Positions 27,928-36,005 are shown, counted from the first letter of the stretch. The stretch is DNA of 64,000 bases from Promethearchaeota archaeon (GCA_048940645.1 JBHLOI010000004.1:54688-118687), one strand, 5' to 3'. The notes: generated by a model not told the origin, from the sequence alone. Numbers and translations: made by a program.

Positions 27928-28153
27928 ACAAAAAGATTATAATTTCACCAATTATTAATAATAATTTTTATTTTCTATAGAAGTGATTGTTATACATTAG
28001 GATAACTTCTATCCACCAATTAGTAAAAATTAAGAAATAAGTGTTTTTTTAAAATTTGCAGGAAAAAAAAACAATGACCCGAAATTGACAAAAAAAATTC
28101 TATAAAAATATAAATTAGAAGTAAATTATCATCATATTCATAATTTTATTGAT

Positions 28154-28324
28154 TTACTCTTTAATTACCCCTTGATGCTTCTCATAATCTTCTTTAGTGA
28201 TATCCCTAAGACTATCTTTTTTACCGCAGTTTTCACAATATACTCTTTCCATATTAGAAAACTCTCCGCAATTAGTACAAATATATGGATATGATTTCTT
28301 AAATGTTTTCCATTTAACCTTCAT
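28154..28324 (-). CDS. 56-aa zinc-ribbon micro-protein (not in ORF track)
   Basis: MKVKWKTFKKSYPYICTNCGEFSNMERVYCENCGKKDSLRDITKEDYEKHQGVIKE*, with two CxxCG knuckles. Transcribed divergently from grpE. Confidence 0.75.
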   Translation of the reverse strand: MKVKWKTFKKSYPYICTNCGEFSNMERVYCENCGKKDSLRDITKEDYEKHQGVIKE

Positions 28325-28647
28325 TTTTCTTCTCTTCTTTCCTAATCATTATCTTATATTATTTAACTATATTATTAAATCTATAAAAATTGTAAAAACT
28401 TAAAAGTTCTATTATATTTCTATAATATTTTAATTATAGAACCATAATTCCAAAATAATAATCAAAAAGAGGAATCAAACTAATTCTGTTTTGTTACTGT
28501 TTAATTGAAAACACTAATCGATTAAAAGTTTATTAATTTTAAATTAAAAAATATATTTTAAAATTCTAAATACAATTTTTTAAGATATATCTATATAAGT
28601 ATTAATTTTAATCAAAAAGTAACTTTATGCGCATTATTATTTAAAAT

Positions 28648-28734
28648 CGAAACCTTTAAATACTTATTTCAACATATAGTAATTGACAATCATTAGTTGA
28701 CAATAAAAATTAATTGACAAAAATAAATTGAAAA
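28648..28734 (+). promoter_or_regulatory. BRE/TATA promoter of the chaperone cluster followed by TTGACAA direct repeats
   Basis: CGAAACC-TTTAAATA at 28648-28662. TTGACAA at 28683, 28697 and 28714, plus TTGAAAA at 28728. Confidence 0.65.
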
Positions 28735-29411
28735 AAATGGTATTTGAAGATTTTTATGATGGATTTTTCAATGCTCGGAGGTCATTAGAGGACCCTTATA
28801 GCAAGATTACAATATCTAAAGCCGAATATAGGCAATTGAGAGAAATTGCTGAAAAATATGAGACTTTAGTTGAGAAATTTAAAGATATCGAAGCTAAAAA
28901 ATCAGAATTACACAAACAACTTGAGGAAATGAGAGATGATGGTAGAAAGCTTAAAGATTTAGAGGAGAAGACAGAAAAATATTTAAATTCACTCGTAAGA
29001 GTGCAAGCTGATTTCGAAAATTATAAGAAATCAAATCATCGTGAAAATGAAAGGTACAAGATGAGAATAAAGGAAGAAATACTAAAAAAATTGATTATAC
29101 ATTATGAAGATTTACAACGGGCATTAAAAATCTTAGAGACTTTAGAAAACATTGAGCATGTAAAAAAAGGGTTTAAGATGATTATAAAGAACTTTGAAAA
29201 ATTTCTCGAAGAAGAGGGAGTAAGAGAGATGAAATGTGAAGGCCAGAAATTTGATCCTTATAAACATGAAGCTCTTATGGTTGAAGAGAACGATAATCTC
29301 CCTGAAAATACTATTATTGAAGAATTAGATAAAGGTTATTATTTTAATAACACTATATTGAAACCCGCAGGGGTTAAAGTATCAAAATTAAAATTTAATA
29401 CAAAAAATTAA
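28728..29411 (+). CDS. grpE: Nucleotide exchange factor GrpE with an extended N-terminal coiled coil
   Basis: RVQADFENYKK, GQKFDPYKHEA and KGY...ILKPAGVKVS motifs. Confidence 0.95.
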   Translation: MKKMVFEDFYDGFFNARRSLEDPYSKITISKAEYRQLREIAEKYETLVEKFKDIEAKKSELHKQLEEMRDDGRKLKDLEEKTEKYLNSLVRVQADFENYKKSNHRENERYKMRIKEEILKKLIIHYEDLQRALKILETLENIEHVKKGFKMIIKNFEKFLEEEGVREMKCEGQKFDPYKHEALMVEENDNLPENTIIEELDKGYYFNNTILKPAGVKVSKLKFNTKN

Positions 29412-29438
29412 AAAAAAAAAAGAAAAAAGTGAAGAAAT

Positions 29439-31325
29439 ATGGGAAAAATAATTGGTATCGATTTAGGAACTTCAAATTCTGCTGCTGCCGTATTGATTGG
29501 TGGTAAACCAACCATTATTCCTAGTGCAGAAGGTAATACATTAGGGGGTAAAGCATTCCCCTCAGTCGTAGCATTTACGAAAGATGGACAGAGATTAGTC
29601 GGTGAGCCAGCACGAAGACAAGCTATTTCAAATCCAGATCGAACTATAACAGCTATTAAACGTAAAATGGGCACTTCTTACAAGGTGACAATTGATAAAA
29701 AGGATTATACCCCACAGGAAATTTCAGCAATGATTTTAAGAAAGATCAAAGAAGATGCTAGCGCTTATTTAGGTGAAGAAGTGACTGAGGCAATAATTAC
29801 TGTTCCAGCTTACTTTAATGATAATCAAAGACAAGCTACGAAAGATGCGGGAAGGATCGCGGGATTGAACGTTAAGCGTTTAATCAACGAACCCACTGCC
29901 GCTGCCGTCGCTTATGGATTAGATAAGAAAGACGCTAGATTAAAAATTGCTGTTTTAGATCTTGGTGGAGGTACTTTTGATGTCACTATAATGGAAATGG
30001 ATAATCATGTATTCGAAGTTATTTCCACAGCTGGAGATACTCAACTTGGTGGTACAGATATGGATAGAATTCTTGTTGATTACATAATTGATGAGTTTAA
30101 AGCCAAAGAAGGTGTTGAATTGAGAAAAGATTCAATGGCAATGCAAAGAATAAGAGAAGCTGCAGAACAAGCTAAAATTGAGTTATCAACCTCAATTACA
30201 ACTGATATAAATCTACCGTACATTACAGCTACAGATTCAGGCCCTAAACATCTTAATTTGTCAATTACAAGAGCAAAGTTAGAACAATTGATAGAACCTG
30301 TTTTGAAAAGATTAGAAGCTCCAATTATCAAAGCTCTGAACGATGCAAATCTCAAGAAAGGTGAAGTTGATAAAGTAATATTAGTAGGTGGACCCACAAG
30401 AATGCCAAGTATTCAAGAGAAGTTTGAGAAATTCTTAGGTAGAACACCAGAAAGAAGTATTGATCCTATGGAATGTGTTGCTATTGGTGCTTCAATTCAA
30501 GGTGGAGTTTTAACTGGTGAAGTCAAAGATTTGCTACTTTTAGATGTGACTCCATTATCTTTAGGAGTTGAAACATTAGGTGGTGTTTTTACCAAATTAA
30601 TTGAAAGAAATACTACGATTCCAACTAAAAAAACTGAAATTTTTAGTACAGCTGCTGATAATCAACCTGCAGTGGAAATTCATGTTTTACAAGGAGAGAG
30701 ACCTAGAGCTGCAGATAACATAACATTAGGTAAGTTTCATTTGACCGGAATTCCTCCAGCACCAAGGGGTATGCCTCAAATCGAAGTTACTTTTGATATA
30801 GATCAAAATGGTATCTTAAATGTATCTGCAAAAGATAAAGGAACGGGAAAAAGTCAAAGTATAACTATTACTGCTTCAACAAAAATGTCTGAAGATGATA
30901 TCGAACAAAAAATAAGAGAAGCGGAGCGAAATGCTGAAGAGGATAGGAAGTTCAAAGAACTAACTGAAGCTAAAAATCAAGCAGAAGCTCTGATATATCA
31001 AACAGAGAAACTTATTAAAGAAAACGAGGCTGGAATCGGAGATTTGAAATCAATGATTCTCGAAAAAATTTCAGATTTACGAAGTGCTATGGAATCAGAT
31101 GATCTCCCCAGAATTAAAAGCGCAACAGAAGCTTTGCAAAGTTCATTACATGAGGTTTCAGCTCGTATTTATGGGCAACAACAAGCTGCATATCAAGGAG
31201 CCCCACCTGGAGGTATGGGTGGAGCAAATCCAGGATCTCAGGGAAAAACTCAAGACGAAATCGAAGAAGAGCAATTTAGACGTGCTACTGGGCAAGATAA
31301 TGTTGTAGATGCAGAATATGAATAA
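29439..31325 (+). CDS. dnaK: Hsp70 chaperone DnaK (archaeal/Gram-positive type, no subdomain IB insert)
   Basis: [26 protein letters not shown] and DVTPLSLG motifs; ends VVDAEYE. Confidence 0.99.
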
Positions 31326-31404
31326 TTCCATTTTTTTTAATTTTATTTTTTATTTTATATTAATTCACGATTATTATGATAATTATTAAATAAAGGGGTT
31401 AAAA

Positions 31405-32418
31405 ATGGCTAAAGATTATTATAAAATTTTAGGTATCCCAAAAAAGGCTACAAAAGAAGAAATAAAAAGAGCATTTCGAAAAATGGCTCGGAAGTATCAC
31501 CCAGATGTAAATCCAGATGAGCCAAAATCAGGTGAAACTTTCAAAGAAATAAACGAGGCTTATAGTATTTTAAGTGATGACAAAAAGAGGGAAATGTATG
31601 ATAAGTTTGGTGTAGTAGATGGAGATCCTTCAACATTCCAACAATGGGGACAGGGATTTCCTGGAGGAGGAAGAACATATAGAAGTCCAGATGGAAGCAC
31701 AACTTATTACTATTCAAACTCGGGTAACCCTGGAGGATTTGATTTTAGTGAAATCTTTGGAAATAATAAATCTTCAAATGGGAGATTTGGAGGATTTGAT
31801 TTTTTCAATGATTTAGGAGATATTTTTGATGTATTTACGAAAAGAGGTACTGGTAGTACGAGAGCTCGTGCCCCATCATATAATTATCCAAGAGAAGGAG
31901 ATGATCTACGATATGATATGGAGATTGAGTTTATGGATGCTTTTTATGGAGGGAAAAAGAAGATTCAATATAAAGATCCAAAAGCTGGCCAAATGAAGAC
32001 CTTAACAGTCAATATACCTAAAGGTATTAGGGATGACCAAAAATTAAGATTAAAGGGAAAAGGAATGCCTGGAGAAAATGGAGGTTCTCCTGGAGATTTG
32101 TATATTGCAGTTCACATAAAGGAACATCCTCTTTTTGAAAGAAAAGGTGATGATCTTTATATAGAACGTGAGATCCCTTTCTCAGTTGCAAGTTTGGGAG
32201 GAAAAACTCAAGTTCCTGGTATTGAAAAAACATTAAATGTAACAATACCTCCTGGAACAAGCGATTCATCTACACTAAGATTGAAAAATCAAGGATTTTT
32301 CAAAATTAATTCAAATGAAAGAGGAAATTTATTAATTAGAATAAAAATTAAGATTCCTGAAAAATTGAGTAAAACCCAAAAACAATTAATTGAACAATTA
32401 AGAGCAGCCGGATTATAA
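31405..32418 (+). CDS. dnaJ: Class B J-domain protein (CbpA/DnaJ2-like, no zinc finger)
   Basis: J domain with HPD, a G/F-rich region and a C-terminal domain (GDLY). No CxxCxGxG repeats. Confidence 0.9.
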
Positions 32419-32437
32419 AGAGGTGGGAAAAAAAGTG

Positions 32438-35053
32438 ATGAAATTCGATAAATTTACGATAAAAGTTCAAGAGGCTCTTATGGCTGCAAGATCATTAGCT
32501 CAAACTAATGATAATCAGCAAATTGAACCAATTCATTTACTAATCTCTTTAATAGAGCAACAAGATGGTGTTACTACTCCATTACTACAGAAATTAGGGA
32601 TAAATATCTCAAATTTATTACACAATTTGAATGAAGATTTAGAAAAATTACCGAAGGTGACTGGATCAGGAGCAACTGATGTAGTTTTATCGCGAAATTC
32701 TGGAAAATTATTTGATAATGCGTGGAAAGAAGCTGAATCTATGAAAGATCAATTCCTAAGTACAGAACATTTAATTTTAGCTATGTCTAAAGACCAAGCT
32801 TTACCTATTTATTCTATTTTAAAAAAATTTGGAATAACTAGCGATAGAATTTTACAAGCATTAACTTCCATACGAGGAAGCCAAACTATTACGGATCAAG
32901 ATCCAGAGGGGAAATATCAAGCAATTGAAAAATACAGTCGCAATCTTACGGATTTAGCGAGAAGGGGGAAAATTGATCCCGTTATTGGAAGAGATGATGA
33001 AATAAGAAGAGTAATGCATATCCTCTCAAGAAGAACCAAAAACAATCCCGTTTTAATAGGAGAAGCTGGTGTCGGAAAAACTGCAATTGTTGAAGGATTA
33101 GCGCAACGTATTGCTAATGATGATGTTCCAGAATCTTTAAAGAATAAAGATATAATTGCAATGGATTTAGCTGCAATGGTTGCGGGTGCTAAGTATCGCG
33201 GGGAATTTGAAGATCGTTTAAAAGCATTTCTTAAAGAAGTAGAAAAGGGAGCAGGAAAATATGTATTATTTATTGATGAATTACATACTTTAGTCGGGGC
33301 AGGTGCGGCTCAAGGGGCTATTGATGCGTCAAATATGTTAAAGCCCGCATTAGCAAGAGGAGAATTACGGGCGATTGGAGCAACTACCATAGATGAATAT
33401 AGGAAGTATATAGAAAAAGATGCTGCATTAACACGAAGATTTCAGACTGTATTTGTAGAAGAACCTAATGTAGAAGATTCAATAGCCATTTTGAGGGGAT
33501 TAAAAGAGAAGTATGAAATCCATCATGGAGTAAGAATAACTGATTCAGCAATTATAGCAGCTGTTATGTTATCACATAGGTATATTGCTGATCGTTTTTT
33601 ACCAGATAAGGCTATTGACCTAATGGATGAGGCTGCATCAAGATTGCGAATTGAGATAGATAGTATGCCAACGGAAATAGATGAAATAGAACGAAAGATT
33701 ATTCAATTAGAAATTCAAAAAGAGGCTTTAAAAAAAGAGAATGCTAAATCGATAAAAGAAAAAATGGAGAAATTGGATGAGGAACTGCATAATCTTCGAG
33801 AAGAAAGCGATAAGTTAAAAATTCAATGGAATAACGAAAAAAATTTCATATCAAAAATCAATGAAATTAAAAAGAAAATGGAAGAAACTAAAATTGAAGC
33901 TGAAAGAGCTGAAAAACGAGGAGATCTTGAAAAAGCTGCGGAATTAACTTATGGAGTTTTAAACCAACTAAAAAAAGATTTAGTACAATATAATTCTGAG
34001 TTAAATGAGATTCAAGAAAATAAAACAATGTTAAAGCAAGAGGTTGATGAAGAAGATATCGCAAAAATTGTTTCACAATGGACAGGAATTCCTGTTTCAA
34101 GAATGTTAGAAGGTGAGCGTGATAAATTATTAAAAATGGAGGATCGTTTGGGGAAGAGAGTAATTGGTCAAGATGAAGCATTGAATATAATTTCAAATGC
34201 TATTAGAAGGGCTAGAGCTGGAATTCAAGACCCAAATAGACCAATTGGGACATTTATTTTTATGGGGCCTACTGGAGTAGGGAAAACCGAGACTGCAAAA
34301 GCATTAGCCGAATTTCTATTTGATGATGAAAATGCCATGGTAAGAATTGATATGTCAGAATTTATGGAAAAACATAGTGTAGCTAGATTAATAGGAGCTC
34401 CTCCTGGTTATGTGGGATTTGAAGAAGGAGGATATTTAACAGAAGCAGTAAGAAGGAGACCTTACTCAGTAATTTTATTTGATGAAATTGAAAAAGCACA
34501 TCTAGAAGTTTTTAACATTCTTCTACAAATTATGGATGATGGAAGATTGACAGATGGTCATGGAAGGACTGTTGATTTTAAGAATACTATAATTATTATG
34601 ACTAGTAATATCGGTAGTCAATACATCCTCGAATCAAGAAAGGAAGATAAAGAAAAGAATAGAGAATTAATATTGAATACTCTAAAAAATTACTTCAGAC
34701 CAGAATTCTTAAATAGAGTTGATGAAATAGTCATGTTTAACTTTTTAGAAGAAGAACAAATTAAGTTAATTGTAGATATACAAATCAGGAATCTAAATAA
34801 AGTTCTCTCGGAGCATAAGATTCAAATAGAATTATCAGATGCAGCAAAAGGAGTGCTCGCTAAAAAGGGATTTGATCCTGATTATGGAGCAAGACCTCTA
34901 AAAAGAGCAATTCAAAATTTAATTCAGAATCCATTATCACTCAAGATTTTAGAAGGAGACATAATTGATGAAGATCTTATTAAAGTTGATTTAAATAAAA
35001 ATGAAAATTTTGTTTTTAAAAAAGTAGGTAAAATTTCGAGGGATTTATCATAA
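32438..35053 (+). CDS. clpB: Disaggregase ClpB
   Basis: Clp N-domain, two AAA+ modules ([16 protein letters not shown]), a long coiled-coil M domain and the GYVG pore loop. Confidence 0.97.
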
Positions 35054-35117
35054 TAAATGTAATTTTTTTTGTTATTTTTTATAATTTTTTTTATAAAATA
35101 ATTAAGGTGATGTTTTA

Positions 35118-36005
35118 ATGAATGTTGTTTATAATTTGAATAAAACTATCAATTTATGCCCTGAATGTGGGGGTAATATTATTTCACTCCAGGAAACTGG
35201 AGATGTTGTTTGTAATCAATGTGGATTAGTTATGCAAGAAAAAAATGTTGATTTTTCTCATAGTGGAAGAAGAGCTTATAGTAATGAAGAAAAATCTAAA
35301 AGGGAAAGAACTGGTTCGCCAATCTCAAGCCTTGTCCCAGATATTGGATTAACCACTACTATAGATAAAAAAAAAATAGAAAATCCTGATTTAAAAAGAG
35401 CAGCGAAATGGGATACAAGAATACCTTGGAAAAAGCGGAATATACTAATTGCCACCACAGAACTTAAAAGAATTAGTACGAATTTGAATTTACCAAATCA
35501 TGTAAAGGAAGAAGCAATGCGCCTTTATAGGGAGGTATTCAAGCAAAATTTACTTCGGGGTAGATCAATAAACTCAATGATTGCTGCTTGTTTATATTAT
35601 GCAATTAGAAAATATAGATTATCTAGAACCCTGCATGAAATCTTAGAGGAAACTGCTGAAAAAGATAAAGATGTTAGACGATGTTATAGAGTGTTAATTA
35701 GAGAATTAAATTTGAAAGCGCCAAATACTAAACCAAGTGCTCTTATTCCAAGATATATTGCTGAATTAGGGTTATCTTCAGAAATTGAAAATTTAGCCAC
35801 AAAAATAGTAAAAACTTTTATTTCCAATTTTTCTAGCAGTGGAAAAGATCCGAAGGGGATAGTTGGTGGAGCTATTTATCTAGCATGTAAAATAAAGAAT
35901 AAGGGTTATACCCAGAAACAAATCGCTGATTCAATTGGGGTGACTGAGGTAACCCTTCGTTCAAGATATAAAGAATTAAGGCAAAAACTTAAAATTTCTA
36001 TATAA
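35118..36005 (+). CDS. tfb: Transcription initiation factor IIB paralogue
   Basis: CPECG...CNQCG zinc ribbon, cyclin repeats (LLRGRS, GKDP.G) and the GVTEVTLRSRYKEL HTH. Confidence 0.95.
   Translation: MNVVYNLNKTINLCPECGGNIISLQETGDVVCNQCGLVMQEKNVDFSHSGRRAYSNEEKSKRERTGSPISSLVPDIGLTTTIDKKKIENPDLKRAAKWDTRIPWKKRNILIATTELKRISTNLNLPNHVKEEAMRLYREVFKQNLLRGRSINSMIAACLYYAIRKYRLSRTLHEILEETAEKDKDVRRCYRVLIRELNLKAPNTKPSALIPRYIAELGLSSEIENLATKIVKTFISNFSSSGKDPKGIVGGAIYLACKIKNKGYTQKQIADSIGVTEVTLRSRYKELRQKLKISI

Follow-up and report, generated by a model that had tools for sequence, protein, structure and literature searches.

Contig C57 of a metagenome-assembled archaeal genome (G000; 3.83 Mb in 126 contigs, approximately 30% GC) carries a cluster of bacterial-type chaperone genes that is followed on the same strand by tfb, a gene for transcription factor B (TFB). 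The host is a Lokiarchaeia-type archaeon of the Asgard group, and several closed genomes exist in the same order. The stretch that was analyzed, C57:54688-118687 (64,000 nucleotides [nt]), is called the window below. A reading made from the DNA sequence alone (here, the original prediction) had described the order grpE-dnaK-dnaJ(class B)-clpB-tfb and had proposed a heat shock module carrying its own initiation factor, in analogy to sigma32. Open reading frame (ORF) listings combined with Pfam and NCBIfam profile scans bore out the gene order, with all five genes intact on one strand, and the 64-nt gap described between clpB and tfb proved exact (Table 1).

The first four genes encode a complete DnaK-DnaJ-GrpE (KJE) plus ClpB bi-chaperone set of the bacterial type (GrpE, DnaK, a class B J protein, and ClpB). 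Because its score exceeds the ClpB equivalog cutoff, the clpB product is not ClpA or ClpC, and clpB is the sole copy in the genome. The dnaJ product was assigned to class B since it had no zinc finger match and fell under the DnaJ_bact cutoff, matching that profile in two stretches. For grpE, the ORF finder offered an alternative TTG start at 28728, which falls within the last unit of the operator described below; GrpE alignments from relatives begin at residues 1 to 4.

Table 1. Features of the chaperone-tfb locus, in window coordinates
Feature	Position	Strand	Description
Operon promoter, B recognition element (BRE) and TATA box	28643-28662	+	AAAATCGAAACCTTTAAATA; TATA box at 28655-28662
Operator array	28682-28734	+	Exact TTGACAA at 28683-28689, 28697-28703, and 28714-28720; near copy at 28728-28734
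grpE	28737-29411	+	ATG at 28737; Pfam GrpE 129 bits, above the Pfam cutoff
dnaK (Hsp70)	29439-31325	+	Pfam HSP70 744 bits; NCBIfam DnaK equivalog 892 bits (cutoff 648)
dnaK-dnaJ spacer	31326-31404	+	79 nt; T8 and T6 tracts
dnaJ (class B)	31405-32418	+	Pfam DnaJ and DnaJ_C only; J domain and C-terminal domain
clpB	32423-35053	+	TIGR03346 ClpB equivalog 1343 bits (cutoff 1232)
clpB-tfb spacer	35054-35117	+	64 nt; T8, T6, and T8 tracts
TATA-like box	35090-35098	+	TTTATAAAA; inside the clpB-tfb spacer, about 24 nt before the tfb ATG
Shine-Dalgarno-like site	35104-35111	+	AAGGTGAT; 7 nt before the tfb ATG
tfb	35118-36005	+	295 amino acids (aa); zinc ribbon PF08271; two TFIIB cyclin repeats PF00382

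Linkage of tfb to the KJE operon

A family-wide search covered 135 species genomes in 13 genera, 111 of which carry this class B DnaJ. A TFB gene lies downstream of dnaJ on the same strand in at least 88 of the 111, spread over nine genera (among them g1, g19, g22, g23, g26, g27, g28, and g29). The distance from dnaJ to tfb is under 250 nt in at least 53 genomes, a clpB-sized 2.6 to 2.95 kb in at least 28, and some other length in at least 4; in 3 genomes (G033, G005, and G071), the linkage was resolved across contig breaks or via tblastn. The original prediction had tied tfb to clpB and dnaK together. The dnaK side of that claim held up across the family. The clpB side was rejected, since clpB sits between dnaJ and tfb in at least 28 genomes and is not there in at least 53, in which tfb comes directly after dnaJ and clpB is elsewhere or was not found. 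The conserved partner of tfb is the KJE operon, and clpB is optional.

Phylogeny placed these linked genes together. With ClpB used as a single-copy anchor, nine other genomes of the window's genus showed dnaK-dnaJ-clpB-tfb, and others had clpB without tfb. In a tree of 83 TFBs, all 13 within-genus linked copies fell into one orthologue clade (Shimodaira-Hasegawa-like approximate likelihood ratio test [SH-aLRT], 95). That clade held three apparently unlinked copies, which proved to belong to grpE-dnaK-dnaJ-tfb loci where clpB was missing or elsewhere. At the scale of the family, all 26 linked TFBs sampled from eight genera formed one clade, separate from the paralogue type named after contig C117 (see below), with moderate support in a quick tree search (SH-aLRT 80). 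The linkage survives loss, gain, or relocation of clpB and persists between genomes whose synonymous sites are saturated (dS above 2). Flanking genes show no such conservation: among 23 loci, the position immediately downstream is taken by at least 7 different genes, and no conserved upstream neighbor of the operon was found among the loci compared.

Mobility of clpB relative to the operon was visible in one group of loci (L045 in G019, L128 in G020, L023/L024 in G035 and G012, and L121 in G024). Genomes in which clpB is cleanly missing between dnaJ and tfb have TFBs 78 to 96% identical to the window TFB. In G012 and G035, clpB occupies a separate locus. Two gene matches were fragmented, as the tblastn match to clpB in G024 was split in two pieces and the dnaJ match in G032 was split in two adjacent pieces.

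A similar arrangement was seen once in another family of the class. In G060 (L133, G060:C3:479000-494000), the order grpE-dnaK-(123-aa ORF)-dnaJ-clpB is followed, after about 400 nt, by a TFB gene on the same strand, and the TFB is of an unrelated, canonical type (QGPEWRAF). As a convergent case, this was set aside as a singleton, the family having two genomes of which the other one lacks the arrangement; it may reflect chance or a second independent recruitment.

The linked TFB and its paralogues

The tfb product has the parts expected of a general transcription factor. A zinc ribbon with four Cys residues (CPEC...CNQC; PF08271, 30.6 bits versus a cutoff of 29) is kept in 26 of 26 linked orthologues, and the cyclin core matches PF00382 in two stretches (130 bits). 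Residues 106 to 294 align with the TFBc fragment of P. woesei in its complex with TATA-binding protein (TBP) and DNA (1AIS/1D3U; E value, 5e-43), and the C-terminal helix-turn-helix segment that reads the BRE is almost unchanged (VTEVTLRSRYKEL versus VTEVTVRNRYKEL in 1AIS). The score against the NCBIfam TFIIB model (NF001658) is 275.8 bits versus a cutoff of 384, placing the protein among divergent members. The tfb gene is under purifying selection, with ratios of nonsynonymous to synonymous divergence (dN/dS) of 0.06 to 0.09 in pairs with unsaturated dS.

Departures from the canonical form lie in the B-reader and the B-linker. The HSGRRAY motif reported originally in place of GPEWRAF is present, the full string being DFSHSGRRAYS, against D-xGPEWRAF in the genome's own canonical TFBs. 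Relative to canonical TFBs from the same genomes, the linker following DFSHSGRRAY lacks 10 + 3 residues, so neither a canonical B-reader nor a full-length archaeal B-linker is found in this protein. Compared with human TFIIB, the B-reader retains Arg and the aromatic residue but has Gly-Arg in place of the Glu-Trp pair; in the alignment, the two linkers are of about equal length. In TFBs, both segments take on an ordered structure only on RNA polymerase.

The window genome encodes nine TFBs (on contigs C43, C116, C117, C86, C36, C87, C88, C42, and C57) and a single canonical two-repeat TBP, on C22; one TBP-like repeat was also noted within a 420-aa ORF on C83. Relatives carry 7 to 11 TFBs each, and no description of this large Lokiarchaeia TFB expansion was found in the literature searched. 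The nine genes fall into three classes. The first has the canonical GPEWRAF motif (C43 and C116), meaning that the linked TFB coexists with housekeeping-type TFBs. The second has ERRAY or PRRAF motifs (C87, C88, and C42). The third, here called SH type, includes the operon-linked gene on C57, the genes on C117 and C86, and a degenerate copy on C36, and is defined by the signature D-x-[SN]-H-[ST]-[GD]-x-R-A-[YF] together with the B-linker that is 10 + 3 residues shorter than canonical ones. SH-type TFBs also occur in G044, from another family of the same order. The variant B-reader is therefore a trait of the whole SH-type subfamily (4 of 9 TFBs in the window genome) and was rejected as a mark of the linked gene. 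This goes part of the way toward a refutation named in the original prediction, a variant common to all TFBs of the lineage.

Comparison with the closest unlinked paralogue clarified how little is private to the linked protein. The C117-type copy evolves very slowly and is present in every genome examined; for tfb, dN reaches 2 to 2.7 times the C117-type value when the same pairs of genomes are compared. Only six positions are fixed differently between the two, all of them conservative, and the BRE-reading helix GVTEVTLRSRYKEL has the same sequence in the C117-type and C86-type paralogues. No determinant of a new promoter specificity emerged from this comparison. Because the helix is identical and the fixed differences are so few and conservative, these comparisons offer no basis for a private promoter specificity, and the distinguishing feature of the linked TFB would be when it is made.

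Promoter, operator, and spacers of the operon

A BRE and TATA box precede grpE, and the sequence AAAATCGAWACMTTTAAATA is conserved upstream of this gene at all orthologous loci examined, whether tfb is present or absent. The BRE of the heat shock promoters looks canonical (cgAAA plus TTTAAATA). An array of TTGACAA units occupies the region about 20 to 70 nt past the TATA box, covering the expected transcription start and the leader, and the corresponding position across the family holds two or three ATTGNCAA units or an inverted repeat, TTGTCAA-N5-9-TTGACAA. An operator over the transcription start is a typical position for archaeal repressors.

Paired operator sites are rare, with only 6 in the entire genome compared to 1 to 4 in shuffled genomes. 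Besides that at grpE, the only well-placed pair (G000:C90:25719-25777) is 31 nt before an Hsp20 gene (C90:25808-26395) that has a similar TATA box, and this arrangement (TATA box, about 20 nt, operator) recurs at hsp20 orthologues in other genera. A wider regulon was not evident, as the relaxed pattern TTTAAATA-N14-32-TTGNCAA was not enriched genome-wide (14 matches versus 8 to 15 in shuffles). A third intergenic match to this pattern, before a secreted solute-binding-like ORF, was discarded as probably due to chance.

The element is kept at grpE and hsp20 in lineages that lack this TFB, including five genomes of the same genus (G003, G024, G011, G023, and G006) and genera g18 and g21. Persistence of the operator in TFB-less genomes means that it is bound by some factor other than this TFB and that the operon can be regulated without this TFB. 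No regulator gene conserved beside the grpE promoter, which might encode the binding protein, was found among the loci compared.

An element of this kind also accompanies tfb when the gene moves. In genus g22 (distances of 271 and 671 nt) and in G091, displaced tfb copies have a TATA box of their own, and behind it an operator-like repeat similar to those found at hsp20 and grpE in the respective genome. For example, in G091, where inserted genes leave tfb 2.8 kb away, the sequence upstream of tfb is GGGTTGACAAAGATAGATTTACAGAT and that upstream of hsp20 is TGGTTGACAGTCAAGAAGAGGTTTACAGAT. Between genera, the half-site drifts in parallel at the grpE, hsp20, and displaced tfb promoters, being TTGACAA in g1, TTGAC(G/A) in g28 and g21, and TGTAAAC in g22 and g27. 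Because displaced copies carry a regulon-type operator, selection appears to keep tfb in the heat shock regulon, either as a cistron or under an operator of its own.

Where tfb remains adjacent, spacing is informative. In clades other than that of the window, the gap before tfb is 1 to 35 nt and holds just a Shine-Dalgarno site, as in TAAAAAGGTGATTAAATG (12 nt, four loci), TAGAATG (1 nt, one locus), and gaps of 4, 16, 19, 21, 33, and 35 nt. A gap this size is too short for a terminator plus a promoter, which makes tfb an operon cistron in these genomes and implies its co-transcription with the KJE genes there. The original prediction had cautioned that T-rich, terminator-like tracts follow dnaK and clpB and leave co-transcription unproven. 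Both sets of tracts are present; the short spacers answer the caution for the lineage, and it still stands for the 64-nt spacer of the window genome.

That spacer contains a TATA-like box and no TTGNCAA operator. Homologous T-rich spacers of 58 to 71 nt with a TATA-like box are kept in the window's subclade (L043, L044, L046, L052, L015, and L128), even in L128, in which clpB has been deleted. For this subclade only, a possible alternative is that the T8/T6/T8 tracts terminate the operon and that tfb is expressed from its own TTTATAAAA promoter, independently of heat shock. Oligo-T is an archaeal termination signal, and conservation of the spacer in a clpB-deleted locus fits such a role. Three features make us treat the idea as tentative. 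The Shine-Dalgarno site conserved in these spacers, AAGGTGATG, lies between the TATA-like box and the ATG and would fall outside a leaderless transcript; similar T tracts occur in the dnaK-dnaJ spacer, inside a universal operon; and AT-rich spacers in a 30% GC genome yield TATA-like words by chance. Oligo-T tracts within the operon may work as attenuators and so tune the relative amounts of its products.

Role of the linked TFB

We favor, with a probability of about 0.7, the interpretation that tfb is the terminal gene of a family-wide grpE-dnaK-dnaJ(-clpB)-tfb operon and encodes an alternative TFB that is co-expressed with the chaperones under stress as an output of the regulon. A canonical BRE/TATA promoter would drive the operon, gated at the transcription start by the ATTGNCAA operator, in its inverted-repeat or tandem form, through a putative repressor that is not this TFB, and the same operator would control hsp20. 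Proteotoxic stress would derepress the promoter, so that chaperones and an extra, divergent TFB are made together. With its complete zinc ribbon, cyclin core, and BRE helix, the linked TFB would form preinitiation complexes with the single TBP, and a TFB with an altered B-reader and a B-linker about 13 residues shorter could shift or sustain initiation during stress. In the window's own subclade, where co-transcription is likewise probable, the T-rich 64-nt spacer would probably attenuate read-through and yield less TFB than chaperone, perhaps also supplying a weak start inside the operon. In such a scheme, the linked TFB looks like a second-tier output of the heat shock regulon, not its master switch.

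Several observations weigh against this interpretation. Heat inducibility of the operon is deduced from gene content and from the operator common to hsp20, which is not a direct measurement. Within the window's genus, seven genomes carry the operon but lack a tfb behind it, and the SH copies of genera g18 and g21 are all of the C117 and C86 types, with no operon TFB; since all of these lineages do without it, tfb is dispensable for the operon. The genomes compared are related species representatives, partly incomplete, and not independent samples; the count of linked genomes is a lower bound, and support for the family-wide clade is moderate. In the window itself, three terminator-like oligo-T tracts and a TATA-like box with no operator mean that tfb is possibly partly uncoupled from the operon. 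In the sole RNA run found, a wetland metatranscriptome (X1, 6% of the words), nothing bridged the clpB-tfb junction, which speaks neither for nor against the interpretation.

The same run yielded a 151-nt contig at window positions 35830 to 35980, inside tfb, with one mismatch at a depth of 3, as well as short dnaK and dnaJ contigs that were 90 to 99% identical. These hint that relatives are transcriptionally active in wetlands and are too little to use further. At tfb-less loci with annotated downstream ORFs (G016 and G024), the next gene encodes a class II fructose bisphosphate aldolase, the same as near the window tfb. A tblastn search of tfb-less genomes (E value, 1e-8) detected no TFB remnants in the gaps of 0.7 kb that come after clpB or dnaJ, with weaker remnants outside the scope of that search.

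Taken to its full extent, the sigma32 analogy of the original prediction would make the TFB a master regulator that recognizes heat shock promoters and switches on the operon and the rest of the regulon, with positive autoregulation. Like many alternative sigma factors, the TFB is encoded within the regulon it would control, its B-reader and B-linker depart from those of canonical TFBs, and there is a precedent in haloarchaea, where a heat-induced TFB binds a heat shock core promoter (PMC2396416). This role nonetheless appears unlikely on comparative evidence. BRE, TATA box, and operator at grpE and hsp20 are all conserved in the TFB-less lineages listed above, and the BRE that such a factor would read is canonical looking. 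The linked TFB has no distinct promoter-reading determinants relative to the C117-type copy, with its identical BRE helix and six conservative differences, and an operator that covers the transcription start suggests repressor control.

A different possibility is that the protein serves as a decoy or brake, binding TBP-DNA and RNA polymerase but opening promoters poorly, and so damping global initiation under stress or providing negative feedback. Replacement of the B-reader Glu-Trp pair, the B-linker shortened by about 10 + 3 residues, and the score below the NCBIfam TFIIB cutoff (276 versus 384 bits) are compatible with a crippled factor, and the 3'-terminal position resembles that of operon-encoded repressors such as hspR in the Streptomyces dnaK operon. 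The same B-reader and B-linker, however, occur in the slowly evolving, ubiquitous C117-type paralogue, which suggests an active factor, and the linker is about the length of that in human TFIIB when aligned. Nor can the TFB be the operator-binding repressor, as the operator persists where the TFB is absent. A brake is therefore quite improbable.

Neutral inherited synteny, in which tfb sits beside the operon by descent with no regulatory or functional tie, could draw on the kinship of all the genomes, on the capacity of gene order to persist passively, and on a window spacer that could end one transcript and start another, but it is very unlikely given a linkage that outlasts dS values above 2, repeated insertion, deletion, and relocation of clpB, and turnover of both flanks, spacers of 1 to 35 nt with Shine-Dalgarno sites that imply translational or transcriptional coupling, and displaced copies that regain or keep the regulon operator.

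The favored interpretation, a stress-co-expressed TFB at the end of a chaperone operon, can be set beside several known systems. TFB2 of Pyrococcus furiosus has a noncanonical B-reader, as does the linked TFB. Heat-induced TFBs that bind a heat shock promoter are known in haloarchaea (TFB2 of Haloferax volcanii and TFBb of Halobacterium; PMC2396416), and P. furiosus tfb2 is listed as heat induced (Shockley et al. 2003, as cited in PMC6101591). All of these, like the linked TFB, are paralogues beside housekeeping TFBs; the tie to heat shock in the present case is one of genome architecture. Unlike the haloarchaeal and Pyrococcus genes, the linked tfb is, family-wide, the last cistron of a KJE(-clpB) operon or bears the regulon operator, and it is not orthologous to them, as it belongs to a Lokiarchaeia-specific subfamily. 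In Sulfolobus, the paralogues TFB2 and TFB3 serve condition-specific programs (cell cycle and UV response) beside TFB1 (preprint 10.64898/2026.09.06.749720; PMC6101591). Those genes are not in an operon with their target pathway, and lineage and condition differ; unlike the truncated TFB3, the linked TFB is full length.

Bacterial heat shock control offers two further points of comparison. As with sigma32 (RpoH), an initiation factor is linked to expression of DnaK, DnaJ, GrpE, and ClpB, and DnaK-mediated feedback is conceivable. Unlike the situation here, rpoH lies outside the dnaK operon and is required for heat shock promoters, whereas the Asgard promoters are unchanged in genomes without the TFB; the proteins are unrelated, and the linked TFB has no new DNA-reading surface relative to its sister paralogue. 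HspR is encoded at the 3' end of the Streptomyces dnaK-grpE-dnaJ-hspR operon and HrcA in hrcA-grpE-dnaK-dnaJ. These systems, grouped here with archaeal repressors of the Phr/HSR1 type, resemble the Asgard locus in having a transcription protein inside an Hsp70 operon and an inverted-repeat operator at the operon promoter that is common to another heat shock gene. They differ in that the Asgard operator (TTGTCAA-N5-9-TTGACAA or tandem ATTGNCAA) is neither CIRCE (controlling inverted repeat of chaperone expression) nor HAIR (HspR-associated inverted repeat), and in that the operon encodes a basal factor where those systems have a winged helix-turn-helix or MerR-type repressor, and this factor cannot be the operator's ligand.

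Heat shock TFB paralogues are thus already known, and it is the operon-embedded, family-wide form and its operator that appear to be undescribed. A 2026 survey of archaeal KJE systems that included Asgard archaea mentioned no transcription factor in the operon (PMC12874294), and a search for literature linking Lokiarchaea or Asgard TFB with dnaK returned nothing relevant. Among archaeal systems, heat-inducible TFBs come closest to alternative sigma factors, and their link to stress has so far come from expression data in a small number of model species. In the present case, gene order itself records the link, and it does so in at least 88 species from the archaea nearest to eukaryotes, a group that uses a TFIIB-type factor. 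This provides a testable candidate for a stress-specific preinitiation complex in Asgard archaea, a defined candidate heat shock cis-element that combines a TATA box with a TTGNCAA-type operator and serves a small regulon (the KJE(-clpB)-tfb operon and hsp20), and an example of a transferred bacterial operon fitted into archaeal transcription control. More speculatively, and doubtful as it stands, these parts could form a two-tier circuit in which a repressor-gated promoter frees chaperones and a dedicated TFB, the TFB then reprograms or protects initiation, and DnaK/DnaJ might titrate the TFB. If so, a general factor would have been wired into a horizontally acquired bacterial operon, giving a sigma32-like homeostat built from eukaryote-type parts.

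Two other observations concern genes near or related to the operon. Within the window, the minus strand at 28150 to 28325 encodes a 56-aa ORF with two CxxC pairs (zinc ribbon-like), between an enoyl coenzyme A hydratase gene and the grpE promoter; homologues lie 0.4 to 1.8 kb upstream of grpE at three other loci, a loose linkage. Outside the window, a second DnaK system is present at G000:C74:23757-30438, with grpE oriented divergently to dnaK and dnaJ. The DnaK encoded there shares 62% identity with the window DnaK, and the intergenic region has no TTGNCAA operator; whereas the window operon is of the stress type, this second system may be its constitutive counterpart.

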